Part shown: piece by piece, positions 1 through 39,106 of the stretch | Layout of the letters: the number at the start of each line of letters is the position of its first letter | Position numbering within the stretch: position 1 is the first letter of the stretch | Virus record (IMG/VR): IMGVR_UViG_3300029288_000083 | Coordinates: 30,130-94,129 of that record | From: a virus | Lineage: Duplodnaviria > Heunggongvirae > Uroviricota > Caudoviricetes | DNA length: 64,000 nt | Direction: 5' to 3' (one strand) | Position numbers and translations under genes: made by a program | The notes under the pieces: generated by a model | Seen by the model: the letters and a program-made list of their open reading frames with translations, nothing else | What the model was told of the DNA's origin: nothing | Database searches by the model: none

Positions 1-285
1 TTTCATTTAATTTTTGTTTCTCATTCAACTTTACTAAAATATGGGGATGCATTGCAGCCTCAATCATTGTAACAGTTTCAGATGTATTTGTAAATTCGAT
101 ATTTGTGTTTAAGTGTTTCCAAACAGCATCAGCAAATTCTCTGCCGTACATAGATTTACCAATTTCAACAATTGAGTAAAAATTTGAATAGCCTTTCTCA
201 TGTTCATTTAACAATGATGCGATGAATTCAGCTTTGTTGTATAAGTTAAGAGCCATAATGATATTTTATTTTATGTATTCAATTT

Positions 286-756
286 TTAAAAGTTTCCCCA
301 TGCAACTTGCATGCAAGGAACATTCATTACATCTCGATACGCTTTAACCATTTGGTCTCTATCTTCTAATGCAAACAATACATTATAGAATGGCGCAATA
401 TGCGTATTGTAAATTTCTTCTTTATATTCGCAATCTTTTCGTCTATCAGAATTTTTACGCATATGTAAAATATAATCTGAACCATTAATCCATCCAGTGT
501 ATTTTGCAATCTGCCGTAATGTTACGTCCATAAACTTTTCTTCGCGACCAGTGACAAAGATAATTTCATATCCTGCTTGTTTGAATAACTTCACAGTTTC
601 AACTACTGGCATGTTTGCTGAATCGACAATATCTGCCTTTCCTGCAAAATACGGACTTCTTTTTCCTACGGTTGCAAGCGTACCGTCTATATCACAAATT
701 ATTGCGAGTTTTTTAACTGTTGGTGTTCCTTCCATTTTATTTTGTTTTTCTGTCAC
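286..756 (-). CDS. HAD-superfamily phosphatase (polynucleotide 3'-phosphatase-like)
   Basis: N-terminal DxDGT motif 'ICDIDGTL' typical of HAD phosphatases. It lies adjacent to a P-loop kinase ORF, resembling the two halves of T4 Pnk. Confidence 0.55.
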   Translation of the reverse strand: MTEKQNKMEGTPTVKKLAIICDIDGTLATVGKRSPYFAGKADIVDSANMPVVETVKLFKQAGYEIIFVTGREEKFMDVTLRQIAKYTGWINGSDYILHMRKNSDRRKDCEYKEEIYNTHIAPFYNVLFALEDRDQMVKAYRDVMNVPCMQVAWGNF

Positions 757-964
757 TTAATAATACAAGTAATTGCGATTCGGGACTTGTTGATGTATAT
801 TTTCCCATTTCCACATAGCCTGTTGTTTTATCAACAGCAGTCACACGTTTTTTAATCAATTCGCCATTTGCTGTGTAATCGCGTTTTCTTGCATAATAAA
901 CAGTATCGCCGACTTCAATTTTTACGCCTTCAATGTCTTGAACTAAATGTAATAACTGACTCAT
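737..964 (-). CDS. hypothetical protein (75 aa)
   Basis: ORF in a tight minus-strand gene array. No recognisable motif. Confidence 0.3.
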   Translation of the reverse strand: MSQLLHLVQDIEGVKIEVGDTVYYARKRDYTANGELIKKRVTAVDKTTGYVEMGKYTSTSPESQLLVLLSDRKTK

Positions 965-1293
965 TATAATACTAAATTTAAAGTTACTTCCGTTTTCGCA
1001 TTATCATCGATTCTTCCAATTATAACGCAATTTTTCAGTTCAGTATTTTCTTTTATCTGAATTCCGCCAATTGTACCAAACTCATCTGTTATGCATTCAA
1101 GCAATTTGATGTCCGATATTATTGCGTATTGCGCTGGCCCTTTTCTTTCTTCAATTGCAATCATATTGCCCAATGACAATATTCTTGTAGCCAATCTACG
1201 CGTTGCGGCATTCTTATCTACAGCATCAGTTAAATTTAAAACTAATATGTTTGCTTCGGGATGATGCTTTTGTATTTTTTCTGATATGTCCAT
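964..1293 (-). CDS. hypothetical protein
   Basis: ORF abutting neighbours at 964 and 1296. No motif recognised. Confidence 0.35.
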   Translation of the reverse strand: MDISEKIQKHHPEANILVLNLTDAVDKNAATRRLATRILSLGNMIAIEERKGPAQYAIISDIKLLECITDEFGTIGGIQIKENTELKNCVIIGRIDDNAKTEVTLNLVL

Positions 1294-1295
1294 GA

Positions 1296-1703
1296 TTATC
1301 TTAATTTAATATCGAATCTTTTTTCCATTGCTTCTAATGAAGCTTCAGGAACATTGTGAATATCTTTACCCCCATGTCTGTTTTCAACAACCAATGAAAA
1401 TACAGAATATCCGTATGTTGCTGCCATATCATAATAAGGTTTCATTTCTTTAACAGTAGTTGATGTATTTGAAACAACAACTCTAGGTACACCGCATTTC
1501 ATTAAATTTTCGCATTTGGCTTGACATGATTTATGCGCGTATCCTTGTCTTGCAAGTTCCCATTTGTATTCTCCATCAATCATGTGATAGTCATCAGCGC
1601 AACAAATTACATCAGGATATCCTTTAGCAATTTCTTCGGCAACAGATGATTTACCTGAACCAGGTACACCTCTAACCATGAATAATATTTTTTCTTTGTT
1701 CAT
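1296..1703 (-). CDS. P-loop nucleotide/polynucleotide kinase-like protein
   Basis: Walker A motif 'GVPGSGKSS' near the N-terminus. Size (135 aa) fits an AAA_33/PNK-type kinase domain. Confidence 0.55.
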   Translation of the reverse strand: MNKEKILFMVRGVPGSGKSSVAEEIAKGYPDVICCADDYHMIDGEYKWELARQGYAHKSCQAKCENLMKCGVPRVVVSNTSTTVKEMKPYYDMAATYGYSVFSLVVENRHGGKDIHNVPEASLEAMEKRFDIKLR

Positions 1704-1753
1704 TTTTTTATTTTTAAAATCAAATATACAACATTAATTATGCAATAGCAAAT

Positions 1754-2743
1754 TTAAAGCATTAAAAGTTTTTTATTTGCGTTAACTTTTATTGTTTCAT
1801 ATTCATCTTGCTTATAAACGATATCCATATAATATAATTGTCCTGTTGGCGGTGGAACTTTACAGTTGCAATCAACAGTATTACGAATACGCACCTCAGA
1901 ACATGGATTTACTGTATCTGCTGCTTTTGCTAAATCTTTTACAATATCATCACCTACTGATGCGTGAAATGCACTTTTGCTTGTCGTTTTAATCACATGT
2001 CCAATGTTAGGATTTATTGTTGCAGCAGGTCTGAACTTAATATCGGGATGCTGTACTGCAGATCTTGCAACATCCGCCAAATCGAATAGTTCATCTTTAA
2101 AATTCGATATAACATCGTCAGCTTCTTTAGAAACCTTAAAATCATTCCATGTAGCATTTCCTTTTGATAATACAGCAACAGTTCTTGGCGCAATAAAATA
2201 CGATGATGTATAGTATTCTTTGTTTACGCCAGTATACTTATAGTTTTGTTCAAATTGAACAAGAATACTACTATCTGTCCTTGTGTTTTTTGCATACTTT
2301 CCTGTTGGCGATATTACTTTTCCAATATGGCCAGCTTCACATCCTGTTAATCTAAATGGTGATTTTGATTTCGGAACAGCAAGTCGCATGCCAAAACAAT
2401 TGTTCCACCATTTTTGGGCTTCAGTATGTAATACAACAACATTGTCACCTATAACCGGGTCGCGTTTTTCGATGTGAAAGAAGCTTTCATCTTTAATTAC
2501 GATTTCTTTTATGTGTATAGGAATATGATAAACAGTATTGCCATACATTGTTTTTGCTGCTTCGCTACACGATTGAATCGGAGTTAATGTGCATTGGTTT
2601 TGACCTTCGGCTGTTTTAAAATTGATGATTGCACAAGTAGCATTATTGTTTCTTGTTTCAATTTTAATATCGGTGCATTCTACAAATGTGTTATAAAACC
2701 TGTGATAGTAAGATTCGCCAACTTTTAATAATGTTTCTCTCAT
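1754..2743 (-). CDS. hypothetical protein (329 aa)
   Basis: Long ORF with compact spacing. I looked for RNA-ligase KxDG/KxHG motifs and found none. Confidence 0.4.
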   Translation of the reverse strand: MRETLLKVGESYYHRFYNTFVECTDIKIETRNNNATCAIINFKTAEGQNQCTLTPIQSCSEAAKTMYGNTVYHIPIHIKEIVIKDESFFHIEKRDPVIGDNVVVLHTEAQKWWNNCFGMRLAVPKSKSPFRLTGCEAGHIGKVISPTGKYAKNTRTDSSILVQFEQNYKYTGVNKEYYTSSYFIAPRTVAVLSKGNATWNDFKVSKEADDVISNFKDELFDLADVARSAVQHPDIKFRPAATINPNIGHVIKTTSKSAFHASVGDDIVKDLAKAADTVNPCSEVRIRNTVDCNCKVPPPTGQLYYMDIVYKQDEYETIKVNANKKLLML

Positions 2744-2771
2744 GATTAAAAGTTAAAAATAAAGTTACTGC

Positions 2772-3113
2772 TTAAGCAGTAACTTCTTCGCCAAATAATT
2801 CTTTATATAAAGCTTGTGCTTTTGTTAATCGACGTTCAGCAAGTGTGATATCGTCTTCTGCATCAAGAATTGCATTTGCGTTTAAAGGCAATTTTCTTTT
2901 TGCTGCATCAACTTTGTCATACAATGTATCAAGATTATCTTCAAGATCATTGATTTGTTTTTTCAAATTGATTTTTGAATTTCTTGCTTCTGCAAGCAAA
3001 TTGATTTTTGCGCCATTTTCTGAAGCATCGTTCAAATTCTTTACAAATTGACAGTTTTCATCAATTTTAATTGTGCGCTCACGTTTTCTTGTTTCTTGGT
3101 TTTCTGTTGACAT
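2772..3113 (-). CDS. coiled-coil hypothetical protein
   Basis: Charged sequence with heptad-like repeats (LEDNLDTLYDKVDAAKRKL). Confidence 0.35.
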   Translation of the reverse strand: MSTENQETRKRERTIKIDENCQFVKNLNDASENGAKINLLAEARNSKINLKKQINDLEDNLDTLYDKVDAAKRKLPLNANAILDAEDDITLAERRLTKAQALYKELFGEEVTA

Positions 3114-3192
3114 AACTTTTAGTTTTTTAAGATTATTATTTAGATTTATTGTTTATTATATACATTAGAATTCATTAGTTTTAATTGCAAAT

Positions 3193-3513
3193 TTATTTTA
3201 TGTATTCACCTGCATTATATGATTGTGCTAATGCATTACCTTCTGCAGTATTTCCCATAAGAGTAAGTACTTCACCGTTTGCATCTTTCAAGATTATTGA
3301 AGAATACGTGTTTTCAGTTTCTTTTGCGACAGCAACAACAAGAATCGGTGGCGTTAACTCTATATAAGATTCTACATGCGTTGCAGTTTCCTTTGTTTCA
3401 ACAACTGTTGTTGTTTCGGTTTTTGTTTCTTGGTCTGCGGATTTACAATTACGAGGAGAGCATGACTGAAATACTATAGCACATCCAGTCAAAATTAGAA
3501 ATACTTTTTTCAT
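3193..3513 (-). CDS. putative lipoprotein
   Basis: Signal peptide with lipobox-like 'LILTGCAIVF...SCSP'. Thr/Glu-rich mature part. Confidence 0.45.
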   Translation of the reverse strand: MKKVFLILTGCAIVFQSCSPRNCKSADQETKTETTTVVETKETATHVESYIELTPPILVVAVAKETENTYSSIILKDANGEVLTLMGNTAEGNALAQSYNAGEYIK

Positions 3514-3564
3514 TTATCAATTTATTAATTATTTGTATATTATATACAGAACAAGTAAAAAGTT

Positions 3565-4863
3565 TTAATTATTTTTGATTATTATTTCTTTTATGAAAAC
3601 AACATTTTCAGATTCTATTTTGATAAAATATGTGCCTGAAGGAATATCGGTTTTTCCTAATTCGTATTCTAAACTTTCATTCGTGTTAATATTTGTACTT
3701 AATAAAGTTTGTCCTGTTATGTTTATAAATTTTAATGTTGCAATTCCAACATGTTTATTTACTGTTACTTTTACATTTGGTGATGCTGATGGTATTGGAT
3801 AAACTAAAATGTTAAAATCTAAATCATTTCTATTTATACTTATTATTTTACTATCAACATTTTTACCATCGTAATCTGTTTGTTTCAATTTATAATAGTT
3901 CATGCCTGTTCTGGCGTCATAATCTTTGTATGCGTAATATCGCATAGTTGTTGAATTACCTGCGCCATCAATATCTGAAATATTTTCAAATGATATGCCA
4001 TCGTATGATTTTAAAATTGAAAAGAAATCATTATTTTTTTCTGATGCTGTTGTCCATTCTAAAAATATAAATTCCTTTTGATTCTTTCCAGTAAACTCTA
4101 CAAGTTCGATAGGAAGAACGGACCCACATGATGCACAATTTTGATTTACTGTTGCAGATCCCCACGTGCCTGTTCCGTTAATTGATATACTTGCCGGTGC
4201 ACATATATTCAACCCTGCATTACTTGACAATGGAACTGAACCTGAAATAGTGGTTGATGAAATGTCCAAACACGATTTCCCAATTGGAGTTTGTATTGCA
4301 TTTGTGTTGTTCCCATATTCAATTGTTGATGCATATAATTTGCCGTTACCGCCAAGACAAACACCTGAACCACCATTTTGCACTGTTAATGTCCCAGTGA
4401 CATTTGCTGTGCCATAGTTTGTCAGAACTGAATTTTCAAATAAATTGCCAATTATATTCAATGTTGCTCCGGCTGCATTTTCGATGCGTCCAGAAGAATT
4501 CACAGTCAAACCACTATTAAATGTGACTGTACCCCAATTTACCAAATCAACATTTAATGTTGTCATTGCAGTTGTTAGCGTTGCGCCTGGTAAAACATAA
4601 ATAGTGCCACCGTTAAAGTTTCCTGAAACTGTTAAGTTCCCTGAGCAAACAATGAATATTGAACCTGCCGATGTATTGATGCCGCCTCTTGTTTGTGTTG
4701 TACTGCTATAATACGTTTCCCCAGAATTTATATTAGCATTATCCGATACTAATTGAGTACCGGTACAAGTTGGCATTGCTGGGAGAGAAACACATTGCGA
4801 AATTGCAACATTAATCTTTACGGTTAATGCTATTAAAAAAAATATTCGTAATATGTATCTCAT
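3565..4863 (-). CDS. secreted beta-helix-like protein with T9SS C-terminal sorting domain
   Basis: N-terminal signal peptide (MRYILRIFFLIALTVKINVAISQ). Gly/Thr/Asn-rich repeats (TVSGNFNGGTIYV, NSGLTVNSSG). The C-terminal ~80 aa (LVYPIPSASPNVKVTVNK...GTYFIKIESENVVFIKEIIIKN) match the Por/T9SS CTD pattern. Confidence 0.6.
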   Translation of the reverse strand: MRYILRIFFLIALTVKINVAISQCVSLPAMPTCTGTQLVSDNANINSGETYYSSTTQTRGGINTSAGSIFIVCSGNLTVSGNFNGGTIYVLPGATLTTAMTTLNVDLVNWGTVTFNSGLTVNSSGRIENAAGATLNIIGNLFENSVLTNYGTANVTGTLTVQNGGSGVCLGGNGKLYASTIEYGNNTNAIQTPIGKSCLDISSTTISGSVPLSSNAGLNICAPASISINGTGTWGSATVNQNCASCGSVLPIELVEFTGKNQKEFIFLEWTTASEKNNDFFSILKSYDGISFENISDIDGAGNSTTMRYYAYKDYDARTGMNYYKLKQTDYDGKNVDSKIISINRNDLDFNILVYPIPSASPNVKVTVNKHVGIATLKFINITGQTLLSTNINTNESLEYELGKTDIPSGTYFIKIESENVVFIKEIIIKNN

Positions 4864-4893
4864 AGTGATGTATTATTTTATGTATTATATTAT

Positions 4894-5271
4894 CTATTCT
4901 TTCTTGTGCGGATTTTTTATGTAAGTTATACAAATATTATATACTTGTTCAATTGTGCAATTATCTTTTACAATTGCATTTGCATAATCTGTTCTGAACT
5001 TAACCGCACGCCAAAAATTAGCAGGTTCTGGATTCTTCGCATCGCATTCTTTGTTTGAATGCGTTAATATGTATTGAACTAATTGCATCGTCCAATTCCA
5101 ATCGTCATGAAAATGAAGTTCTTGATGAATGATTCTATTATCGAATAATTTCACGAACGGATTTAAGTTATCAACAAAAACCCATTTTAAACAAATTGAA
5201 TCTTTGCAAGTTACAACTTTTGCGCCAACGAAACGCGCAATCAATTCATTATTTTCTTTATGTGTTTTCAT
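4894..5271 (-). CDS. hypothetical protein
   Basis: ORF only. Confidence 0.35.
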   Translation of the reverse strand: MKTHKENNELIARFVGAKVVTCKDSICLKWVFVDNLNPFVKLFDNRIIHQELHFHDDWNWTMQLVQYILTHSNKECDAKNPEPANFWRAVKFRTDYANAIVKDNCTIEQVYNICITYIKNPHKKE

Positions 5272-5272
5272 A

Positions 5273-5794
5273 TTAGCAAATTAATAATTTTTTATTCTGT
5301 GTTGGTTTAAAGCATGTCTCGTAATTTTTCGTATGTTGTTCTTGAATATTTACATTACGATCTTTTAATATTCTTATTATATCGAATGATAAACTACCAT
5401 GCATATGCAATCTTTTTCGATTTGTTTCAACGCCATAAACAAATTCGTGTTCGCAAATAAAATTGTTAGCATCTATTGAATATGTAATGCCGCTTAATGG
5501 CACGCCGCTTATTGCATACGCATTAAGTTCTGTTTCTGTCGGATGAATAATGGCGTCTTCAGACTTTGACGATATGATGCTTATTTTATCATGCCGTCTT
5601 TTCAAATTTTTGTATAATACTGAACTTGTATTTAGTTTTGTTTTTGCATCTGTAATCTGTTCAATTGAAATATGCGTGCCATCACGGTACACATGCTTGC
5701 ATATAATATCATACGGATTGATTGAATACGTTACTCCATTAACAGGATTGTCAACGCTATGCGATATATCATATAGATTAATTTCATTTTTCAT
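5273..5794 (-). CDS. hypothetical protein with internal duplication
   Basis: Two internal repeats (GVTYSINPYDIICKHVYRDG / GITYSIDANNFICEHEFVYG). Confidence 0.4.
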   Translation of the reverse strand: MKNEINLYDISHSVDNPVNGVTYSINPYDIICKHVYRDGTHISIEQITDAKTKLNTSSVLYKNLKRRHDKISIISSKSEDAIIHPTETELNAYAISGVPLSGITYSIDANNFICEHEFVYGVETNRKRLHMHGSLSFDIIRILKDRNVNIQEQHTKNYETCFKPTQNKKLLIC

Positions 5795-6024
5795 TGTTCG
5801 CAGATTAATAGTACTTTTTTATTTGTCGGAAGTATTTCTTTATTGAATTGCGATTTTGCTCGCATGCTGCCTAATGTAACTGCTGGATTTTTTTCAAGAA
5901 AATCTTTCAAATGATTTTTCTTGTTATACGCAAACCATATGTCACCAAGATCTTCGCCACTTAATTTGTATAATGGTCTTCCTGACTTGGTTAGAACCCA
6001 ATCATCGTTTGTTTCGTTTTTCAT
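5791..6024 (-). CDS. hypothetical protein
   Basis: ORF overlapping the upstream gene by 4 nt. Confidence 0.3.
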   Translation of the reverse strand: MKNETNDDWVLTKSGRPLYKLSGEDLGDIWFAYNKKNHLKDFLEKNPAVTLGSMRAKSQFNKEILPTNKKVLLICEQ

Positions 6025-6348
6025 ATCAATTACAAATTAATAGTATGTTATTTGAAGACGGCTTAATTGCTTCATTTTCAATTGCAATATTATCCCATCT
6101 TTTATAGAATTCTTCGGTGAATTTTATATCAAGCATTACGTATTCACGAAGCTTTTCATATTGCTCAGGATCCATTTTATGCATGACGTTTTTTCTTGAT
6201 TGTTGAATACTTCTTTTTTAAACTTTTTGCAAATGCAATTATGTCATCTGCAATTTCTTCTCGTTCACCGTGCGGTTTATCACTAAGCAATTCTTCAATT
6301 TCTTCTACTGCACGTTTTCCTGCTAGATAATCAATGTCCATTCCCATA

Positions 6349-6826
6349 TCAAATAATTTTAAAAGTTTTTGTTTCCATTACAGGCCACCAATATTTACCG
6401 CCATTGTAACCTTTATCTTCTGGCCATTTTTGTTCATAATACTCTGGTAGTTTTTCGATTAATCTTGCTCGATGCGCTCTATGAAAATTTTCGTTTCCTA
6501 ACCACCAAGGCATATCAATCGGTGCCATACCAATGTTCCCATGATTCAAGTCTTGTATAAATTCTGGTGTCCATTCAAAAAAAAAGTGGCATTGTATTTT
6601 TATAGCCTCTTGATGTCCATTCCTTTATTGTAAAATCATGATACACTTTTAATGCATCGATGCATCCTTCCCATGCTTTAACAGCAGGATGGTTTTGCCA
6701 ACTTACTTTATTGCCTTCAAGTACATTAATGATTTGTTTATTTTCAATTCTTTGTTTTCCTAATCTGCGATAATCTAAAGCAGCAACGGATTCAATAAAA
6801 GACGGATATGGTAAAAATGTTTGCAT
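6349..6826 (-). pseudogene. denV-like pyrimidine-dimer DNA glycosylase (Pyr_excise family), frameshifted into two ORFs
   Basis: ORF 6575..6826 (…LDYRRLGKQRIENKQIINVL…WQNHPAVKAWEG…) and ORF 6349..6549 (…PWWLGNENFHRAHRARLIEKLPEYY) resemble the N- and C-terminal parts of endonuclease-V/denV-like proteins. They are separated at an A9 homopolymer (6583-6591). Confidence 0.45.
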
Positions 6827-6924
6827 ATAATATTATTTTTATATTATATACAGAACTATTTTATAGTTTTCATACAATGTCTTTATCTCTATTGTTATTT
6901 TAGATATAGTTGTTATTGTCAAAA

Positions 6925-6972
6925 CTAAAAAAGTTCACTGGATGCAAATTAATGTATATCCAGTGAACTTTA
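6925..6972 (-). terminator. rho-independent terminator downstream of the PARP gene
   Basis: 12-bp perfect stem agttcactggat / atccagtgaact. An A6 run on plus gives a U-run on the minus transcript. Confidence 0.55.
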
Positions 6973-6992
6973 CTTTATGTTATTTGAATTTA

Positions 6993-8291
6993 TTAATTTG
7001 CGATTTCAATAATGTATTTTACTGTTACTTGAGCAGCATCATAAACAATGAATTCATCATTTCTTAAATCGGCGCCGCCATGAGCATATACAGAATCAAA
7101 TCCTTCACGTGCAAGTTTTTGTTTGTTCAATGTGTAGCAATCAGAATTGTGATGTGTTATATTTTTTTGATTACCTACATGAAAATCAAATAATGCAAGA
7201 TATGCAGAACTTGATGACCCGCCTGACCAACATGCACCACGAAGAGATGTATAGCCAATTGATTTTTGAGCTTTATTTGCACCGTAAATACCATCGCCAA
7301 ACATTGAACCCGTATGAACCGCACCAGATGGACGAATTAATAAACCTGATTGTAAAATGTTGAACCAGTTTTCATTTCGTGAACCATGCCAAAATAATTC
7401 GCATTTTTTATCTTTTGCATTTGCAACATATGCATCAAACTTTTCTTGTGTTTTTCTGTTTGTAACACGGAATGCAGAACGGAATTGATTTGCATTCGGT
7501 CCCATCATTTTTTTGATGATTTCGATTTCTTGCGCATTTGCTTCAACCGCCTCAAGTCCAAGTGTTTGCAACATGTCCATAGATTTCTTATGGCCTTCAG
7601 CATCAGGTTTATTTGCTTTCGCTTGTTCTTTTTGCTTGCGAAGTAATTCAACTTGACCTGCCATTGTATCAAGAACCGCTTGTTCATCAGCCATCAATTT
7701 ATGAGCGCGTTTTGTATCAGCGTCAGATTTGAAACTTGATAATAAATGGTCTCGTACATTTGACATTTTACGAGGAATGATTGAATAAAGTTTCAATAAG
7801 TTATTATTGATACCTTCAAGATGCGCAGATTTCTCTGTTAGAATTTTTGAAAGTGTATCAATAATTTTTTGAGCTTCATCAACCATAGCTTGGGTTACTT
7901 CACTTTGCGTAACCGTATAGTTTTCTTGTACCGTCTTTTTAGCATAAGCCATCAATTTGTCGAATAATGCTTTAACTGCACGATTTTGAATTTCCGCTTG
8001 TGTGACAGTTTCACCATTTGCTTCAGCATCAGCAGTTACTTCCGCAATTGCTTCTTTGAACAAATGTGTCATATCCTCATAGCCTTTTTTTGTTTTGCTG
8101 CGGTAAATTTTATCCCACTCATGCGCAGAATATTCGTGTGTAACTTCGGTACCTTTAATACGTCCGTATTGCACGATAAAATTACCTGATGCTTGTTCGA
8201 ACATATTGTAATACTTGTTGTTATTATCTGCGGTAACGCAAACTAATTTAACAACTTTTTTTCCTGGAACTGTATAATCTTTTAATTGCAT
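6993..8291 (-). CDS. poly(ADP-ribose) polymerase-like protein (WGR domain + PARP catalytic domain)
   Basis: N-terminal WGR-like segment (YYNMFEQASGNFIVQYGRIKG). The C-terminus has PARP catalytic signatures in order: 'FWHGSRNENWFNILQSGLLI' (His-Gly-Ser), 'GSMFGDGIYGANKAQKSIGYTS' (Tyr) and 'NDEFIVYDAAQVTVKYIIEI' (catalytic Glu, cf. PARP1 '[20 protein letters not shown]'). Confidence 0.8.
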   Translation of the reverse strand: MQLKDYTVPGKKVVKLVCVTADNNNKYYNMFEQASGNFIVQYGRIKGTEVTHEYSAHEWDKIYRSKTKKGYEDMTHLFKEAIAEVTADAEANGETVTQAEIQNRAVKALFDKLMAYAKKTVQENYTVTQSEVTQAMVDEAQKIIDTLSKILTEKSAHLEGINNNLLKLYSIIPRKMSNVRDHLLSSFKSDADTKRAHKLMADEQAVLDTMAGQVELLRKQKEQAKANKPDAEGHKKSMDMLQTLGLEAVEANAQEIEIIKKMMGPNANQFRSAFRVTNRKTQEKFDAYVANAKDKKCELFWHGSRNENWFNILQSGLLIRPSGAVHTGSMFGDGIYGANKAQKSIGYTSLRGACWSGGSSSSAYLALFDFHVGNQKNITHHNSDCYTLNKQKLAREGFDSVYAHGGADLRNDEFIVYDAAQVTVKYIIEIAN

Positions 8292-8309
8292 ATCTGTAAT
8301 TTATTTTGA

Positions 8310-8849
8310 TTATTGTCTGCAAGCACGTACGTCATGTAAATGAATTCCTGTGAATGCGCGATAAGCGATTCGAACATCGTCCCTTGTGTATGTTGATGGG
8401 AACCAATAAACAGTTTGTGAAGTTACAGAATAAGCTTTCCAAGAACCGGTTGTTACAAGATTTGCGTTTGCAAATGATACAATAACTTTTCCTGAGCGAG
8501 TTGTGTGAGATCTGCCAGTTGCTACAGATGCAGGAACAATTTGATTTGCATTTGATGGTTGGCCAGCAGCAGCACGAAGAGATTGCGTTGTAGATTGATT
8601 TGCAGTTGTTGGTTGAGCAACAGATTGACCTTTTGAATCTGTGTACACACGGTGAACACCGTTATACGAGAATGAATAATTTTCTTCGGCACAAACCTGA
8701 ATCATTAAATCAGATACATCCGCTTGTTTTGCGAAGAATCCACGAACTCGTAATTCATTTTTGATGTCGAGAGTGGTTGTTGAACCATTTGTTTCGATTA
8801 AATCCGATGCAACATCGAATACGTCTGCTTTTGTAAGTGTCTTTGACAT
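8310..8849 (-). CDS. hypothetical protein
   Basis: ORF. Low-complexity Ser/Thr/Gln-rich middle. Confidence 0.35.
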   Translation of the reverse strand: MSKTLTKADVFDVASDLIETNGSTTTLDIKNELRVRGFFAKQADVSDLMIQVCAEENYSFSYNGVHRVYTDSKGQSVAQPTTANQSTTQSLRAAAGQPSNANQIVPASVATGRSHTTRSGKVIVSFANANLVTTGSWKAYSVTSQTVYWFPSTYTRDDVRIAYRAFTGIHLHDVRACRQ

Positions 8850-8921
8850 AGTTTAGATTTTTTTAAGTTTAACTTTTAGAACTTTTAGATTTTCTATTTC
8901 AATTTATTATATACACAAGAA

Positions 8922-16933: not shown

Positions 16934-17452
16934 TCATTTTCTTTTATCTGTTAAATTTAAGAACATTCGCATTTCGCCTTGTGATTTGAATTCTCTATGT
17001 TTTTCAATACATTTATTTTGAACTTTATCAAACTCTATGAATTTTATAATTCCTTGAGAAAATGGATAATCGCTATACACAATACTTACATCAACATCAA
17101 ATTTATTAGATAACGCTCCAAGTTCGGAATACACTTCTAATTGTTCTTTATGTCCATTTGATATTTTTTCATTTCCATGTTTGTATTCGATGATTCTCAA
17201 TTTACGAGAATTTCTGCTATATAAAGATAAATCAATATTTACCATTGATATGTTACGAACATTTGCTTCATCAGCAAATTTATTCAATGGTGACCCAAAA
17301 TTATGTCGTTCCGCTGTTGTCATGTTGTCGATATCAGCAGGATTCATTTCAACATATAATTTAGATAGTTCATCAACTAAAAATTGTTTATTACCTTTTG
17401 AACGACTAATAAGATTTAAAATCCTATTAGTAAACATTTTTTCATTTAGCAT
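16934..17452 (-). CDS. hypothetical protein
   Basis: ORF only. Confidence 0.35.
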   Translation of the reverse strand: MLNEKMFTNRILNLISRSKGNKQFLVDELSKLYVEMNPADIDNMTTAERHNFGSPLNKFADEANVRNISMVNIDLSLYSRNSRKLRIIEYKHGNEKISNGHKEQLEVYSELGALSNKFDVDVSIVYSDYPFSQGIIKFIEFDKVQNKCIEKHREFKSQGEMRMFLNLTDKRK

Positions 17453-18015
17453 TCTGTATTTTTTAATTCGTCTTCAATCAATTTTGCAATTTCAATAGCA
17501 GTATCTCGGTCTGCATCTAAATCCTTGAATTTTATGTTATTCTCAATTAATAAATTTCTTATGATAACTGATAACTCATTACTTTCTTCTTCTGTTTGAT
17601 TACGTCCGTTTGGATTGTAGTCTTTTGTTCTATTAAGAAAAATATTTAATGTCCAATACAAACCGTCTGCTGCAATTACAACTTTTTCTAACGCATCATT
17701 AAAAATTGTTTGTTTCGGATTATCGTTTGTGTTGTATAAACGATTATAAACAGTATTTAATAAAATAGGACTGTCTGTTATCACAACTTCAACTTTACCG
17801 TTTACTCTAAAAATCCTGTGGTGCTGTTTTCCTAACAAATATAATTGGTCTGTCATTGTGTGATGACGTTTCTCCCATACCAATTCTTTTGCAAATTCAG
17901 GAACCATTTCAGAATCAATTTTATCCCACTTTAATGCAGCAAAAGTTTCTGCCATTAATGTTGATTTGCCTGTTCCTGGTGCACCATATAAATTTACGAT
18001 TAATGTCTTTTTCAT
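17446..18015 (-). CDS. P-loop NTPase/kinase-like protein
   Basis: Walker A 'LYGAPGTGKSTL' at the N-terminus. Confidence 0.5.
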   Translation of the reverse strand: MKKTLIVNLYGAPGTGKSTLMAETFAALKWDKIDSEMVPEFAKELVWEKRHHTMTDQLYLLGKQHHRIFRVNGKVEVVITDSPILLNTVYNRLYNTNDNPKQTIFNDALEKVVIAADGLYWTLNIFLNRTKDYNPNGRNQTEEESNELSVIIRNLLIENNIKFKDLDADRDTAIEIAKLIEDELKNTEC

Positions 18016-18018
18016 ATT

Positions 18019-18567
18019 TTAAAAATTAACGTAATAACCGTATTTCTTGTTGCCATAAATTAATTTCAATGATGGATAACGTTCAGTCATGTTTTCGATT
18101 GTTAAATCATCTTGAATATGAATTTCGTGTGTATTGCCGTATGCAATACCTTGTACATAAGAATATGGAACAGCAACTAAACATTTTTGACCTTTTGAAT
18201 TCATTTCATCAATAATTCTTGTTGCATCTTCAATTGTTAAGTGTTCAAGAATGTCACCAAAAATTAAAAATTCGTATTCTGAAAAATCGAAATCAACAAT
18301 GTTAGAATGCGTCACCTTATTATAAATTTCAGATAACTTGTATTTGATAATGTATTTTTCAAACACTTCACAAGCATCAAGTTTATAAGGTGCAAGTAAT
18401 TTCGCGTACGTTCCTTTTCCTGGACCAACGTCTAGAATTTTAGTAATGTTATTTTTTTCAAACGTGTCAATTAAATATTCCTTGACTTGTTTTTTGTATG
18501 ATCCGTAACTTTGCGGCATATTAAAAAATTTAAAGATTAATGTATAACTATTAATTATTATATACAT
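18019..18567 (-). CDS. class I SAM-dependent methyltransferase
   Basis: Motif I 'ILDVGPGKGTYA' and motif 'FLIFGDILEHL'. Confidence 0.6.
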   Translation of the reverse strand: MYIIINSYTLIFKFFNMPQSYGSYKKQVKEYLIDTFEKNNITKILDVGPGKGTYAKLLAPYKLDACEVFEKYIIKYKLSEIYNKVTHSNIVDFDFSEYEFLIFGDILEHLTIEDATRIIDEMNSKGQKCLVAVPYSYVQGIAYGNTHEIHIQDDLTIENMTERYPSLKLIYGNKKYGYYVNF

Positions 18568-18586
18568 TACTAAACTATAGTTTTTG

Positions 18587-18667
18587 TAACCCCTGAGAGA
18601 CTCGAACTCTCACGTCTTTCGACACCGCATCCTAAGTGCGGCGCGTCTACCATTCCGCCAAGGGGCC
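18587..18667 (-). tRNA. tRNA, class II (tentative Leu-TAG)
   Basis: T-arm 'gagagactcgaactctc'. Anticodon arm ccgca/tcctaag/tgcgg. Confidence 0.6.
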
Positions 18668-18816
18668 ATTAGTTAAACAATTCGATTCCTCGATTTTCCC
18701 AGTTCGACCTGGGCCGTTGCATTGCTTGACCTATGCTTTACATTTGTTCCGTCAAGAACAAACAGCTTTAGTCCGAGGAGAAAGCGGCCACTCCGTTCTA
18801 CCTTTTGAATTGTTTG

Positions 18817-18897
18817 TGACCATGAGAGGACTCGAACCTCCACCCCTTTCGGGAGATGCTTCTTAGACACCCGCGTATACCATTCCGCCACATGGCC
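18817..18897 (-). tRNA. tRNA (class II, anticodon unresolved)
   Basis: T-arm 'gaggactcgaacctc'. Acceptor gaccatg/catggcc. Confidence 0.55.
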
Positions 18898-18908
18898 ATT
18901 TTATGTTG

Positions 18909-18980
18909 CTGTCCTTTCAAGATTCGAACTTGAACTACCTGAGTCAAAGTCAGGTGTGTTAACCATTACACTAAAGGACA
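18909..18980 (-). tRNA. tRNA (tentative Gln-TTG)
   Basis: Perfect acceptor tgtcctt/aaggaca. T-arm tcaag/attcgaa/cttga. Anticodon loop CTTTGAC. Confidence 0.65.
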
Positions 18981-18985
18981 ATATG

Positions 18986-19072
18986 TAGCTCAGGTCGGAG
19001 TCGAACCGACACGGACATTTCTGTCCAAAGGATTTTAAGTCCTTCGCGTACTACCAATTTCGCCACTGAGCC
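18986..19072 (-). tRNA. tRNA, class II (tentative Leu-TAA)
   Basis: T-arm gtcgg/agtcgaa/ccgac. Anticodon arm aagga/ttttaag/tcctt. Long variable arm. Confidence 0.6.
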
Positions 19073-19077
19073 AAATG

Positions 19078-19160
19078 TAGCCGGAACGGGACTCGAACCC
19101 GTACGCCCGATGGGCACCGCCTTTTAAGGACGGCGTGTCTACCAGTTCCACCATCCGGCC
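19078..19160 (-). tRNA. tRNA, class II
   Basis: T-arm acggg/actcgaa/cccgt. Acceptor gccggaa/atccggc. Confidence 0.55.
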
Positions 19161-19171
19161 ATTTGTACTTG

Positions 19172-19242
19172 TTGTCCATCAAGGATTCGAACCTTGAAAT
19201 TCAGCTCCAAAAACTGACGTGTTACCATTACACCAATGGACA
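19172..19242 (-). tRNA. tRNA
   Basis: T-arm caagg/attcgaa/ccttg. Acceptor tgtccat/atggaca. Confidence 0.6.
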
Positions 19243-19252
19243 ATATTTTAGA

Positions 19253-19322
19253 TGCCCGTTAAGGATTCGAACCTTAAACGACAGAATCAAAATCTGTAGT
19301 GTTACCGTTACACCAACGGGCA
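19253..19322 (-). tRNA. tRNA (tentative Gln-TTG, second copy)
   Basis: Acceptor tgcccgt/acgggca. Anticodon arm acaga/atcaaaa/tctgt. Confidence 0.6.
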
Positions 19323-19384
19323 ATTTATTTTCAAATATAAACCATTATGAAATGAATAGCAATGGTTTATGAATTAATTTAAAC

Positions 19385-19418
19385 TAAAAAAGCTCGGTCA
19401 ATTTGATTTGACCGAGCT
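19385..19418 (-). terminator. rho-independent terminator
   Basis: 10-bp stem gctcggtcaa/ttgaccgagc preceded by A6 on plus. Confidence 0.5.
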
Positions 19419-19672
19419 CTAAGTATTATAAGATAAATGAAAGTTTACATAATACAGAATCGGCCACAACTTCGTAGTTGTAGTAATTGCAATTGCTGTA
19501 ATAATATGTTAACTGAATTTTTCATTTTAATTTATTCTTTATTGATTTGAATTATTTTATAATTATATACACGAGTTTTAAATAGTTTCAAATTATTTTT
19601 ACCTTTGTGAATTAAATTATTTTTATTATATATTCACGAAGTTTAAAAAGTTTTACACAATTTTAATATTCT

Positions 19673-20341
19673 TTATAAATGTTTAAATCCTGTTTCATCT
19701 AACCAAGTTTTTAAATTTGGTATGCTAGTTCCGTTATAATCTGTACGTGTTGAAAACATGCCAGCGCCATGAGCAGTCATATCTATAATTTTGTTATTCT
19801 TTGTTAAGACTGTCATCCAAATGTTATTCGATAAACTCGGTGTCTCTCCGTGTTTTCGCATAAATGGTTCGTATAATGTGTATGCACCTATTGTGTATGA
19901 TTTGTTACTGATATCTAGCATAAAACTTGTGGACAATATTTTTTCTACTTCTTTCGGCATATTCTTATGCGATTCCGGAATCTCCAATACTTCTGCTAAA
20001 CGTTTTCCCATTTCTAATGGGTTATCGCGTTTATTACATTGAAGACAACCTCTGCTTCCTCTTCTATCTATAGAATAACTAATAAATATTTGGTCATATT
20101 GAATATTGAATCCTATTTCGTTTATTCTATCTTTATCACTGTAAAGAACATCACCTTCTGCATCTATACCAACGTATTGTAATTTCGGAACAGCAGTGGC
20201 CATTACACTTAACACAAAATCAATTGAATCATCTGTTAAATTAAATCTATTCTTATTATGAACAAAGAAGTTCTTTGCTTCGTCAAACGCGCCAGCGCTT
20301 TCGTTCAAGAAATCGTCAAACATGGGTATTCGGTTTTTCAT
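19673..20341 (-). CDS. paralog family member 1 (N-terminal 'IPMFDDFLNES' motif)
   Basis: Shares its N-terminal motif with three tandem neighbours. Confidence 0.45.
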   Translation of the reverse strand: MKNRIPMFDDFLNESAGAFDEAKNFFVHNKNRFNLTDDSIDFVLSVMATAVPKLQYVGIDAEGDVLYSDKDRINEIGFNIQYDQIFISYSIDRRGSRGCLQCNKRDNPLEMGKRLAEVLEIPESHKNMPKEVEKILSTSFMLDISNKSYTIGAYTLYEPFMRKHGETPSLSNNIWMTVLTKNNKIIDMTAHGAGMFSTRTDYNGTSIPNLKTWLDETGFKHL

Positions 20342-23214: not shown

Positions 23215-23286
23215 AGGGGTCGAACCTACATCAACCGGTTCGAAGCCGGACATGCTATCCATTGCACCATGCAGCCGTTTAATGAA
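23215..23286 (-). tRNA. tRNA
   Basis: T-arm gtagg/ggtcgaa/cctac. Acceptor with wobble pairs. Confidence 0.5.
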
Positions 23287-23971
23287 TTCTTTTATAACAG
23301 TTTTCTTCATAAAACGCATTCATATATCGTTTCATCCATCTATTTACCTTTTGCGGTTTTATATTTATTATAACCGCAATTTTTGACACCCAACCAAATT
23401 TTTTAAAATCTATATCAGTTTTTTTTATGATTTCTATAATATCTTTATATTTTTCTTTGTTTTGTTCAAATACTGCATTTGCGTAATCATTTCGATTACC
23501 GTACTTGTGTCGTTTAAATTCTTTCAATACGTCATCAATATTGTATTTTCTATACGATCTATTTGAATTTATAAATTCTTCAAATAATTTGAATTCTGCA
23601 TCAGGATTGTTTAAAAAATCTTTTGCCGCTATTCTATAAACTATCCATCCATTTTCAATTAGAATATTGTCTCTTCTATTATCATATTCTATATTTGCTG
23701 CTGTTCTGTAATGCTGTATCCCATCAATTTCTATATCACATTTTAAATCAATTAAACCGAAATCCAAGAAAAAACCGTATGCTGGAAATTGATCTTGTAT
23801 ACTATATTTTTCATAATATCCATTATTTCTCAGAAATCCTTCAAATAATTTTTCTGGATAACTTCTGTTGTTTCTATTTGCTTTAGACCATCCAGGATGC
23901 CGACCTTCTGCGTGCACCTTTTTCATAGATACAGAAATTTTTTCTCTTGTCTTATTTGAAAGAACTTTCAT
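23279..23971 (-). CDS. DUF559/Vsr-like endonuclease-domain protein (homing-endonuclease-like)
   Basis: 'GFFLDFGLIDLKCDIEIDGIQHYRTAANIEYDNRRDNILIENGWIVYRI' resembles the DUF559 restriction-endonuclease-like fold. The C-terminal segment 'FGWVSKIAVIINIKPQKVNRWMKRY' is shared with HNH gene 26489..27067. Confidence 0.45.
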   Translation of the reverse strand: MKVLSNKTREKISVSMKKVHAEGRHPGWSKANRNNRSYPEKLFEGFLRNNGYYEKYSIQDQFPAYGFFLDFGLIDLKCDIEIDGIQHYRTAANIEYDNRRDNILIENGWIVYRIAAKDFLNNPDAEFKLFEEFINSNRSYRKYNIDDVLKEFKRHKYGNRNDYANAVFEQNKEKYKDIIEIIKKTDIDFKKFGWVSKIAVIINIKPQKVNRWMKRYMNAFYEENCYKRIH

Positions 23972-24300: not shown

Positions 24301-24370
24301 TTATTTATTTATTAAAAACAAATATACAACATTATAAAGGCAATAGCAATATATATGCTATTTATTTTCG

Positions 24371-24460
24371 AGAAATTGGTTGGATTCGAACCAACGATTC
24401 CTTTATGGAATACCGGCTTCCGCCAGCGCATTAAGCCACTCTGCCACAAAATCAATTTAG
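24371..24460 (-). tRNA. tRNA, class II (anticodon unresolved)
   Basis: T-arm gttgg/attcgaa/ccaac. About 90 nt long. Confidence 0.4.
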
Positions 24461-25228: not shown

Positions 25229-25984
25229 TTAAAATTTCATTTTTCTTCCTTTATGCCACCCCAAAGGAATTTCATCTTCTTTTTTAATTTTTTTATTTTG
25301 TTTCAATTCTGAATTGTGAATCCACATAGAACCGTATTGTGATGATTCTTTGCCAACATATCTTGCTTTTAATTTATCTGATATTTTTTTCTTCGTTGAT
25401 TCAGTATGCAAAATATCTTTCCGTATTCCTGTATACTTGTCAGAATTTATAAATTCATCCACTGTTATTCTTTTCATTACACCAAATTCATCTCGCACAA
25501 CAACTGTTCCTTTTGTGTGATGCTGCAATATGCCATTCAAATATAAATCATTTTTTGTTTCAATATAATGGCATACGCCATTATCATCTCTTGCATATAC
25601 ATATCCAATATTTCCTTTCGTTGCACCAATAAGTTCGCCGGCTAAGTATCTGGCGTCATGTATTGAAACTTGATATATTTTTCCATTTGCATCTTTTACA
25701 GTTGCTGTGCCAACTGTGTGAAATCCCTTATTAGGAATATAGTAATTTTCATTTAGAGGATCATCAATGAACTTTGCAATTTCGTCTGATTCAAACTTTA
25801 TTGCATCCTCTCTGCAAATAAAGTCATCCTTAAGTATTTCTTTTTTCAATTTTGTTTTGTCTGGTTTCCATACAGACATTGAACCTAAATAATTATCTAA
25901 TCTAGGATGAACTTTAGAACTTCTTGAACCTATATAGAATTGTTTTGTTTCTATATGTTCAATTCGATATACGTAATGATGCAT
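25229..25984 (-). CDS. GIY-YIG homing endonuclease
   Basis: 'YVYRIEHIETKQFYIGSRS' (GIY…YIG). C-terminal NUMOD-like 'WIHNSELKQNKKIKKEDEIPLGWHKGRKMKF' is shared with 40648..41295. Confidence 0.7.
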   Translation of the reverse strand: MHHYVYRIEHIETKQFYIGSRSSKVHPRLDNYLGSMSVWKPDKTKLKKEILKDDFICREDAIKFESDEIAKFIDDPLNENYYIPNKGFHTVGTATVKDANGKIYQVSIHDARYLAGELIGATKGNIGYVYARDDNGVCHYIETKNDLYLNGILQHHTKGTVVVRDEFGVMKRITVDEFINSDKYTGIRKDILHTESTKKKISDKLKARYVGKESSQYGSMWIHNSELKQNKKIKKEDEIPLGWHKGRKMKF

Positions 25985-26488: not shown

Positions 26489-27067
26489 TTATATTTTTCT
26501 TTTATATGCATTTGCTTCAATTTTTGGCAAATGACGTTTCATCCAATCTCTAGTTTTTTGCGGCGTCATTTCAATAATTTCAGCAACCCTTTTGCACCAC
26601 CCAAATTCTTCAAAGTTTATATTTCCGTTTATAACCTTTTCTTTCAATTCTTCTATTGCGTCTTTCTTTTTTTGTTCTGATAAAAAACGTACCGTCTTGT
26701 AATATTTTTTTCTATATTCACGTGTCGAATTTTTATTTGCGCCTTTATACGTTGCAGTTAAAGAATGACAGTTTGGACAAAGAACTCTTAAATTATCAAT
26801 ACTGTTATTAATAGGATTCCCGTCAATATGATCTATTTCTAAAGGAATCTTGTTTGTATATTCATTAACTTCATGCCAACCACACATCGAACATTTATTA
26901 TCTGCATTAGATAAGATCCAACGTCTAGCCGGACTTGTGATTTTTCGTTCATATGCATCAAGTTCAAGCCATTTTTGCAATAGCATGTTACTGAAGTATT
27001 CTGCTTGACATTTATTATCACAAAATTTATTGCCTTTAATTTCTTTTCCGCAATTGATACATTCCAT
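26489..27067 (-). CDS. HNH endonuclease
   Basis: 'CSMCGWHEVNEYTNKIPLEIDHIDGNPINNSIDNLRVLCPNCH' is a classic HNH. C-terminal DNA-binding-like tail is shared with 23279..23971. Confidence 0.6.
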   Translation of the reverse strand: MECINCGKEIKGNKFCDNKCQAEYFSNMLLQKWLELDAYERKITSPARRWILSNADNKCSMCGWHEVNEYTNKIPLEIDHIDGNPINNSIDNLRVLCPNCHSLTATYKGANKNSTREYRKKYYKTVRFLSEQKKKDAIEELKEKVINGNINFEEFGWCKRVAEIIEMTPQKTRDWMKRHLPKIEANAYKRKI

Positions 27068-30120: not shown

Positions 30121-30168
30121 ATTGTCAATTTTAATTTATTGTTATATACAGAACTTTAAATTAGTTTG

Positions 30169-34184: not shown

Positions 34185-34382
34185 ATGTATCTTAAAAATA
34201 TAGGATGTCTGGCGTAAGCTCGTTCCGAAGAACTACATGTTATAAAATAACACCCGTCTAGTTGTCCACTAATGTTAAAGCTTGGACCTATATTTAATTT
34301 TTTAAAAACGATGACTACTCAAACATAATCCACAATTCAATAACTGTTTCTAAAGGCCTACAACTTCGGCATCGTTTATTTG

Positions 34383-34453
34383 TAACGCATATAGGATTCG
34401 AACCTATGTTTCAACCGTCAGCGATTGCGCCCTTACCCCTAGACTAATGCGTC
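34383..34453 (-). tRNA. possible tRNA (poorly resolved)
   Basis: T-arm atagg/attcgaa/cctat. Acceptor aacgcat/atgcgtc. Anticodon arm not resolved. Confidence 0.3.
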
Positions 34454-36499: not shown

Positions 36500-36633
36500 T
36501 TGCGAGGGCCGGACTCGAACCGACGACCACGAGATTAGGAGTCTATTTCGTATTTGTTGCTGTATGAAATCTTTAATCAGATTTCAGTTTTTTGAATACG
36601 TGCTCTACCAACTGAGCTACCTCGCAATATGTT
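36500..36633 (-). tRNA. tRNA gene interrupted by a ~60-nt insert (intron-like)
   Basis: Perfect acceptor ttgcgagg/cctcgcaa. T-arm gccggactcgaaccgac. D-arm gtgctctaccaactgagctacc (cf. tRNA 36214..36286). Internal hairpin 'gaaatctttaatcagatttc'. Confidence 0.5.
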
Positions 36634-39096: not shown

Positions 39097-39106
39097 ATAA
39101 AATTTG

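Follow-up and report, generated by a model that had tools for sequence, protein, structure and literature searches.

Poly(ADP-ribose) polymerases (PARPs) have a central part in DNA-break signalling in eukaryotes and are drug targets, and the relatives found in prokaryotes and viruses are regarded as the source from which the eukaryotic enzymes evolved. A 64,000-nucleotide stretch of tailed-phage DNA (IMG/VR record IMGVR_UViG_3300029288_000083, positions 30,130 to 94,129), referred to here as the window, carries a gene for which an earlier note, made from the letters and their open reading frames (ORFs), had proposed a phage-encoded PARP. The locus raises the question of whether this gene encodes a working PARP, what such an enzyme would make, and what use a phage would have for it. 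The window protein is almost certainly a PARP-family enzyme, and none of the outcomes that the earlier note had named as refuting came about. The best overall explanation, held with moderate confidence, is a PARP1-3-type enzyme of a huge phage, composed of a WGR domain in its YGR variant, a helical regulatory domain (HD) and an ADP-ribosyltransferase (ART) domain, that would be gated by breaks and work with phage repair enzymes.

The gene and its family

Positions 6993 to 8291, minus strand: PARP gene, 432 amino acids (aa) and a stop codon; ATG-to-stop ORF, matched by Pfam PARP, PHROG 23333 and the identical NCBI protein MFA5722709.1

The ORF occupies exactly the positions at which the earlier note had placed a 432-aa product, and it lies on the minus strand; the plus-strand translation of the same interval is full of stops. 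The Pfam PARP profile PF00644, which had been expected, was matched at aa 269-430 with E=6.6e-22 (78.4 bits against a cutoff of 26.7). The same profile was found in 64/64 members of the family alignment, which comprises relatives with 48-73% identity and was used for all calls of invariance. PHROG 23333 ("polymerase") was matched at E=6e-57, with aa 17-430 aligned to profile positions 9-382 of 383. The single window sequence matched PARP1 catalytic fragments in the PDB at E=2.7e-12, and the family profile reached PARP1 at 1.1e-22 in a single stretch that runs from the WGR domain through the HD into the ART domain. No NCBIfam model matched the window PARP.

Catalytic domain and active site

Positions 6996 to 7556, minus strand: ART catalytic domain, aa 246-432; PF00644 at aa 269-430 and Foldseek
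Positions 7380 to 7388, minus strand: H302-G303-S304 of the NAD+ site (PARP1 H862-G863-S864); HMMER alignment and family invariance
Positions 7293 to 7334, minus strand: donor-site D-loop RPSGAVHTGSMFGD, aa 320-333, with the loop length of PARP1; alignment to PARP1
Positions 7284 to 7286, minus strand: Y336 (PARP1 Y896); HMMER alignment and family invariance
Positions 7053 to 7055, minus strand: E413, the catalytic Glu (PARP1 E988), with N411 at the PARP1 Y986 position; alignments

The C-terminal domain has the ART fold, and Foldseek matched it to the catalytic domains of PARP1, PARP2, PARP3 and PARP4 with E values of 1e-16 to 1e-20. The NAD+ site is complete. In the HMMER alignment, with the numbering checked, H302, G303, S304, M330 and Y336 correspond to PARP1 H862, G863, S864, M890 and Y896, and K343, S344, Y347 and E413 correspond to K903, S904, Y907 and E988. 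H302, G303, S304, Y336, K343, Y347 and E413 are invariant in the 64 relatives, while M330 and S344 are near-invariant. The motifs quoted in the earlier note were all found, namely QYGRIKG (Y42-G43-R44), FWHGSRNENW (H302), GDGIYGANKAQKSIGYTS (Y336, K343, S344, Y347) and NDEFIVYD (E413), and the His-Tyr-Glu (H-Y-E) triad it had described is present at the predicted positions and invariant family-wide. The 14-residue D-loop has the length seen in PARP1 and PARP2; it aligns without gaps to PARP1 'APPEAPVTGYMFGK' and keeps the S/Y-M-F-G motif. The AlphaFold2 model gives it a low predicted local distance difference test score (pLDDT) at aa 321-328. The window protein is likely to be catalytically active.

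WGR and helical domains

Positions 7998 to 8291, minus strand: WGR-type domain, YGR variant, aa 1-98; four-strand beta sheet at aa 13-55, then helices
Positions 8160 to 8168, minus strand: Y42-G43-R44, equivalent of the W-G-R motif; family profile alignment and invariance
Positions 7557 to 7997, minus strand: helical regulatory (HD or PARP_reg-like) domain, aa 99-245; phmmer and AlphaFold2 model

The AlphaFold2 model, built from the 64-relative alignment, has a mean pLDDT of 85.7 and a predicted template modelling score (pTM) of 0.79. It comprises a four-strand sheet with helices at aa 13-90, a bundle of helices at aa 104-226 and a C-terminal alpha/beta domain. The structure prediction and superposition on PARP1 suggested in the earlier note gave a confident ART-fold model that aligns with whole WGR-HD-ART chains; such chains, and not isolated catalytic domains, are the top Foldseek matches in the PDB, over ~490 alignment columns. 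The best are PARP2 bound to DNA (7aeo_A, a complex with a DNA break, 1e-20; 6x0l_P) and the WGR-CAT part of PARP1 in complex with a double-strand break (4dqy_C, TM 0.65/0.62). The family profile pairs 'eyGRv' with PARP1 'sWGRVg', and the WGR-module residues N25, K26, Y28, G43, R44, K66 and Y71 are invariant. In addition, phmmer aligned aa 133-245 to the PARP1 HD inside one significant stretch.

Several profile searches speak against this domain assignment. Pfam WGR PF05406 stayed below its cutoff in the window protein (17 bits against 22, E=0.0064) and reached E<=0.01 in just 7 of the 64 relatives. A WGR-only family profile was insignificant on its own, with PARP3 WGR (2eoc_A, E=0.01) as its top PDB match, and an HD-only profile was likewise insignificant alone (E ~0.3) and matched the PARP1 HD exclusively. 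The PARP_reg match (PF02877) that had been raised as a possibility was not obtained for the window protein; 2 of the 64 family members match that profile. The proposed WGR domain is upheld by structure, by the family profile and by the PARP3 WGR as top match, but not by Pfam, where it is sub-threshold. In bacterial PARPs, Tyr in place of the WGR Trp is the commonest state and a helical domain missed by Pfam is typical (Garcia-Saura et al., PMC5966428). The WGR(YGR)-HD-ART architecture, as modelled, is accepted on concordant weak sequence signals together with the structure because the YGR variant and a Pfam-invisible HD are the norm in bacterial PARPs.

Polymer or single ADP-ribose

The earlier note held that an H-Y-E triad predicts elongation. 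This was overstated, since PARP3 and PARP4 carry H-Y-E and yet are mono-ARTs (PMC9189837); the triad is necessary and insufficient for polymer synthesis. A polymer is favoured by the donor D-loop of PARP1/2 type in the window protein, a loop that is missing from the mono-ART PARP3 (PMC8150716), and by HaPARP and CdPARP of Herpetosiphon and C. difficile, the two bacterial PARPs assayed so far, which have this architecture and make poly(ADP-ribose) (PAR) in vitro (PMC8120803).

Other findings point the other way. The PARP1 Y986 position, two residues ahead of the catalytic Glu, is occupied by an invariant Asn (N411) instead of the aromatic residue tested as a feature of poly-ARTs, and the L985 position by a near-invariant Arg. 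Y986 and L985 are acceptor-site positions and are tied to elongation and branching. With the invariant N411 and the near-invariant Arg, long polymers are therefore not assured. Moreover, no Pfam match to PARG, macrodomain or ARH was found in any ORF of the window, and the PARG signature GGG-X6-8-QEE was found neither in the window nor in 86 related loci. A reversible PAR system, in which a PARP is joined by a PARG or macrodomain as in Herpetosiphon, was thus not seen within these 64 kb of a 379-425 kb genome. The balance tips slightly towards a true polymerase rather than a mono- or oligo-transferase.

Distribution and earlier reports

The earlier note described PARPs as very rarely reported in phages, a view that the literature has overtaken. 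PARPs of Aeromonas phage Aeh1 and of Cellulophaga phi4:1, with their H-Y-E triad, were recorded by Perina et al. (2014; PMC4245714). Iyer et al. drew attention to PARPs of jumbo phages in 2021 (PMC7824862), Iyer et al. in 2022 placed PART/PARP with the viral ART families that are met most often (PMC9503650), and a 2024 study in Microbiome assigned 'PARP1' to many NAD-jumbo phages (PMC11662467). Homologues were found by tblastn in 16 of 50,697 phage records, mostly annotated as PARP already: Cellulophaga phi4:1, phi17:2 and variants, three Klebsiella phages, Xanthomonas XacN1 and Xoo-sp13, Stenotrophomonas CM1 and RAS14, and two uncultured huge phages. At least 246 viral contigs in IMG/VR encode a relative, and a HMMER search of 1.84 billion cluster representatives gave 544 distinct 50%-identity clusters at E<=1e-30. 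The gene is a further member of a known, annotated and fairly widespread phage PARP family; it is neither novel nor a new kind of protein.

One point from the literature tells against any functional reading: it yielded no report of an assayed phage PARP, and what the enzyme does, what switches it on and what it makes are all inferred. The remaining interest lies in this missing biochemistry, in a recurrent linkage to repair genes and in two candidate partner proteins. The large, well-conserved phage clade, with ~430 aa and no zinc fingers, would be a convenient minimal system for the gating of PARPs by WGR and HD.

Proposed break gating and role

By analogy with PARP2, PARP3, HaPARP and CdPARP, the HD would hold the active site shut, and binding of the WGR domain to a break in nucleic acid, most likely at a 5'-phosphorylated end, would release it. 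With NAD+ the opened enzyme would ADP-ribosylate itself, proteins close by or the end at the break, and the products would probably be oligo- or poly-chains. It would work alongside the end-healing and sealing enzymes of the phage, with a polynucleotide kinase (PNK)-phosphatase in the window and RNA and DNA ligases in relatives, and would serve to mark or protect phage nucleic acid damaged by ultraviolet light or host nucleases, or to channel its repair.

Positions 286 to 756 (HAD_PNKP) and 1296 to 1703 (AAA_33 kinase), minus strand: split polynucleotide kinase-phosphatase, 5-7 kb downstream of the PARP gene; Pfam

A Metallophos phosphoesterase gene lies just outside the window, near the split PNKP (locus L001, 18286-19047).

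WGR-type PARPs are activated by 5'-phosphorylated breaks (PMC8150716). PARP1, PARP2 and PARP3 ADP-ribosylate phosphorylated DNA ends, and the resulting 5'-ADP-ribose (5'-ADPr) can replace ligase adenylylation and allow ATP-independent ligation (PMC8053099). A break-gated transferase working with phage repair enzymes is the most economical model because WGR-PARPs sense and modify 5'-phosphorylated ends and prime ligation. Judged by these analogues, the window PARP is somewhat more apt to be break-activated than otherwise, and a repair-linked role, suggested by gene context, is plausible, if not quite probable.

A narrower variant, which is rather improbable, is that the enzyme acts like PARP3 and places mostly single ADP-ribose on the phosphorylated ends of broken phage DNA or cleaved tRNA. 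Such ends would be shielded from host exonucleases or primed for ATP-independent ligation by neighbouring ligases. This would suit the preference of PARP2 and PARP3 for DNA ends over automodification and the ATP-free ligation that 5'-ADPr allows (PMC8053099), as well as N411 in place of PARP1 Y986 and the heavy investment of the phage in tRNA (50 genes). However, the D-loop is like that of PARP1/2 and not PARP3, and PARP3 is reported to be inactive on RNA (PMC8053099). The neighbours of phage PARPs, which repeatedly include RNA and DNA ligases, PNK, RlaP and a CCA-adding enzyme, also speak for end capping, but this synteny may be inherited.

Neighbours across related loci

The ORFs lying up to 10 kb from the PARP gene were all clustered for 86 loci; at <90% PARP identity these loci fall into 49 groups. 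By Pfam, an Rnl2-type RNA ligase and an ATP-dependent DNA ligase are each found near PARP in 25/49 groups, Rnl1 in 16/49, and RlaP and an HD_4 protein in 13/49 each. A PNK-like kinase, by a domain-specific count, is near PARP in 9/49. Any ligase within 10 kb was seen in 27 of the 49 groups and any end-repair gene in 30. Individual loci show such neighbours in arrangements that differ and are independent of one another. PNKP and Metallophos genes form a trio directly after PARP in L006 and also accompany the window PARP, LigA lies 4 kb upstream of PARP in L007, Cellulophaga phi4:1 gp031 is flanked by a DNA ligase and a CCA-adding enzyme, and Klebsiella FBKp34 gp111 has an RlaP domain and a phosphatase nearby.

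These counts have to be set against two findings that weaken the repair-linked reading. Of the 27 ligase-linked groups, 25 represent one syntenic block that also contains a hydrolase-like partner, so that much of the association of PARP with ligases could be owed to common descent, which inflates the count. In addition, no repair genes lie close to the PARPs of the Xanthomonas and Stenotrophomonas jumbo phages.

Positions 11257 to 12027 of L034, 11271 to 11999 of L010 and 11274 to 12008 of L026: examples of the hydrolase-like gene, which occurs in 24 other locus groups

This gene of ~237 aa abuts the PARP stop codon in 27/49 groups, and its start lies at -36 to +5 nucleotides (nt) in most of them. 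Its product matches PHROG 3668 'hydrolase' (4e-17) and has invariant H109, NGGTxN, EPDL and DERV, but gave no Pfam match and no PDB sequence match at E<1. It has 4,734 homologues, which among the 120 matches listed are 'hypothetical' or unnamed throughout. The gene is absent from the 64-kb window, where a 179-aa gene precedes PARP, and the family of that gene and the hydrolase-like partner never co-occur in the 49 locus groups. Both proteins are candidate PARP partners.

Host takeover has been suggested for jumbo-phage PARPs by Iyer et al. 2021 (PMC7824862), whereby the enzyme would modify host proteins in the manner of T4 Alt/Mod. The sigma-70-like factor of the window phage is in keeping with this, as are the PARPs of XacN1 and RAS14 in their lack of nearby repair genes. 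Nevertheless, the recurrent neighbours are ligases and end-healing enzymes and not transcription genes, and T4-type takeover ARTs belong to the R-S-E clade without WGR or HD modules. Across the family, both the autoinhibitory HD and the WGR residues for break sensing are kept, which argues for an activity gated by nucleic acid rather than a constitutive one. Host takeover, which is unlikely here, fits this conserved gating less well than the break-gated repair model.

The break-gated repair reading can be extended, tentatively and with little confidence, to phage PARPs in general. They would be break-gated modifiers of phosphorylated ends, in damaged phage DNA or host-cleaved tRNA, and would form a module with PNK, RNA and DNA ligases and the hydrolase-like partner. 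If true, the module would serve viruses as a counter-defence against nucleases of the host, and prokaryotic viruses would be a possible origin of PARP-coupled break repair. The ligase and end-healing neighbourhood offers a concrete hypothesis for PAR chemistry in the conflict between viruses and bacteria.

Genes around PARP in the window

Positions 8310 to 8849, minus strand: 179-aa gene, ending 18 nt before the PARP start codon; ORF list
Positions 6927 to 6971, minus strand: intrinsic-terminator-like hairpin (14-bp stem) with a U-run, 22 nt past the PARP stop codon; folding
Positions 6575 to 6826, minus strand: pyrimidine-dimer DNA glycosylase of the T4 endonuclease V type, the next gene downstream; Pfam Pyr_excise 1.5e-22
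Positions 10004 to 11038, minus strand: HD-phosphohydrolase/nucleotidyltransferase fusion; best match CoaD-like, below cutoffs
Positions 11727 to 12341: RNase HII; Pfam
Positions 12895 to 13458, minus strand: NADAR-domain protein, 4.6 kb from PARP; Pfam 4.6e-42
Positions 17446 to 18015, minus strand: NadR-kinase-like AAA_28 protein, a weak match
Positions 42867 to 43460, minus strand: NadD-type nicotinamide/nicotinic acid mononucleotide (NMN/NaMN) adenylyltransferase, 35 kb from PARP; TIGR00482 above cutoff

The 179-aa protein is modelled with two small domains joined by a disordered linker at aa 74-107 (AlphaFold2 pLDDT 78). Its N-terminal domain is weakly winged-helix-like, with the DNA-binding domain of BlaI as the best Foldseek match (E=6e-3); no Foldseek match at E<=1e-3 and no Pfam or PHROG match were obtained. 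The family is found near PARP in 13/49 groups and directly upstream in ~6. The hairpin past the PARP stop codon has a folding energy of -20.3 kcal/mol (z=-5.7), and 0/200 shuffles fold as well. The 179-aa gene and PARP are probably one transcription unit. A consensus terminator scan missed the hairpin at 6927-6971 because it has a long loop, and a consensus promoter scan gave 22 hits, not above the 17.6 +/- 4.6 of shuffled sequences. Also to be counted against the repair-linked reading, the DNA glycosylase gene lies past the strong terminator-like hairpin and is adjacent to PARP in only 1/49 groups.

The placing of the gene next to other NAD-linked genes, as claimed in the earlier note, was borne out in part. 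The NADAR gene is 4.6 kb away, whereas the adjacent fusion is CoaD-like at sub-cutoff level and the true NMN adenylyltransferase is 35 kb off. A conserved NAD-linked accessory region was considered and rejected, as NADAR, the HD-CoaD-like fusion, RNase HII and Pyr_excise occur with PARP in just 1-2 of 49 groups. NADAR acts on guanine-ADPr and not on PAR, and proteins of this kind remove ADP-ribose from DNA guanine; T4 has a NADAR (gp30.3) without any PARP. The window NADAR is an unlikely PARP partner because it is adjacent in only 2/49 groups, and it probably counters host toxins that ADP-ribosylate DNA rather than partnering PARP.

The carrier

The carrier of the gene is a huge tailed phage. 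The contigs that carry the identical protein measure 379,087 bp and up to 425,361 bp. The window has ~33% GC, and of its 103 selected ORFs 84 are on the minus strand. Its gene products include tail-fibre proteins (among them a match to phrog_972 at 1.6e-20), a phage exonuclease and a sigma-70-like factor. A tRNA array at 16458-41755 on the minus strand comprises 50 ARAGORN genes and 52 Rfam matches, covering most amino acids with several duplicates. The description of the gene as phage-encoded is thus sustained by tail-fibre PHROGs, 50 tRNAs and relatives in IMG/VR.

An origin in a cell would follow from the NCBI entry of the identical protein, MFA5722709.1, 'MAG: ADP-ribose polymerase [Candidatus Pacearchaeota archaeon]', in which case the gene would be archaeal and the assignment to a phage mistaken. 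The tail fibres, phage-type exonuclease, 50 clustered tRNAs, homing endonucleases and the placing of nearly all genes on one strand contradict this, as do the relatives on at least 246 IMG/VR viral contigs, and an archaeon would not be expected to have a bacterial type IX secretion system (T9SS) sorting domain or a sigma-70 factor. The 179-aa neighbour has an identical copy that was binned as 'Clostridia bacterium', which shows the bin labels to be unreliable. Archaeal origin was rejected on the phage gene content, the IMG/VR relatives and these labels: 'Pacearchaeota' and 'Clostridia' are binning artefacts. Taken at face value, the name 'Pacearchaeota' would wrongly imply a first archaeal PARP, when the DNA is that of a mis-binned phage. 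A decayed, inactive passenger gene is no better an account, with the catalytic residues all invariant across 64 relatives, and the two possibilities together are highly improbable.

Positions 3565 to 4863, minus strand: T9SS C-terminal sorting domain (Por_Secre_tail); Pfam
Positions 47107 to 47775, minus strand: Fib_succ_major domain; Pfam
Positions 23279 to 23971, 25229 to 25984, 26489 to 27067 and 40648 to 41295: homing-endonuclease-like ORFs (DUF559/MTES_1575, GIY-YIG-like, HNH_3) among the tRNAs

The T9SS and Fib_succ_major domains point to Bacteroidota/FCB, and the host is probably a member of the Bacteroidota. The nearest cultured-phage homologues of the PARP are those of Cellulophaga phages. 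A megablast of window positions 1-20000 against the 50,697 phage records gave no match, so that this phage is not itself among those cultured or assembled genomes.

Other features of the window were noted in passing. Rfam tRNA matches at 16545-16673 and 36500-36626 are 127-129 nt long and may contain introns, and three ARAGORN tRNAs (24370-24453, 34382-34453 and 39106-39174) have abnormal anticodon loops. In relatives, a PNK-like gene carries a fused or inserted GIY-YIG module (L022, 2323-3519). The window also has a GH19 lysozyme-like gene at 14652-15266, among its few plus-strand genes, an R2K-clade ATP-grasp gene at 15282-15824, an SPFH/flotillin-like gene at 31205-32788 and a YqeY-like gene at 36853-37263; FBKp34 has a YqeY-domain gene two genes downstream of its PARP. 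Positions 60325-63990 on the minus strand encode a Gly/Ala-rich repetitive protein of 1221 aa with predicted membrane-like segments and no Pfam or PHROG match, which may be a tape-measure or injected protein.

Comparison with known systems

Human PARP2 and PARP3, which share the WGR-HD-ART core with PARP1, have the same domain order and fold as the window protein, and the H-Y-E triad and NAD+-site positions are identical. In contrast, the identity to them is just 16-20%, and the window protein has Tyr for the WGR Trp. It also differs from human PARP1, PARP2 and PARP3 in lacking an N-terminal tail, zinc fingers and BRCT, and in having Asn at Y986 and Arg at L985. Unlike the human PARPs, it was detected with no PARG or HPF1-type partner in scans of the window ORFs and, for the PARG signature, in the 86 loci.

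HaPARP of Herpetosiphon aurantiacus and CdPARP of Clostridioides difficile CD160 are, by their descriptions, similar compact WGR-HD-ART enzymes of ~400-450 aa. They are accompanied by a cognate PARG, by which their modification is undone, and HaPARP needs DNA for activation (PMC8120803). The cognate PARG sets them apart from the phage enzyme, for which none was found in the window or the related loci.

T4 Alt, ModA and ModB are likewise phage-encoded NAD+-dependent ARTs. They differ in belonging to the R-S-E clade without WGR or HD, and they carry out mono-ADP-ribosylation or RNAylation of host proteins (PMC9503650). The R-S-E signature is absent from the window protein, and no Alt/Mod family is among its Pfam and PHROG matches.

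Further counterparts are the annotated phage PARPs phi4:1 gp031, vB_KpM_FBKp34 gp111, XacN1 ORF414 (BBA65562.1) and UniProt A0A8D9PE85 (Bacteriophage sp.), which are full-length homologues with 95-99% query coverage in the same PHROG 23333. The record of FBKp34 gp111 lists WGR, PARP_reg and PARP domains, and the model of A0A8D9PE85 in BFVD is near-superposable on that of the window protein (TM 0.84/0.87). The window protein shares 46% identity with its nearest record, LR756500.1, 36% with A0A8D9PE85 and only 24-28% with the PARPs of cultured phages, and it belongs to a distinct metagenomic clade carried on contigs of 100-500 kb.

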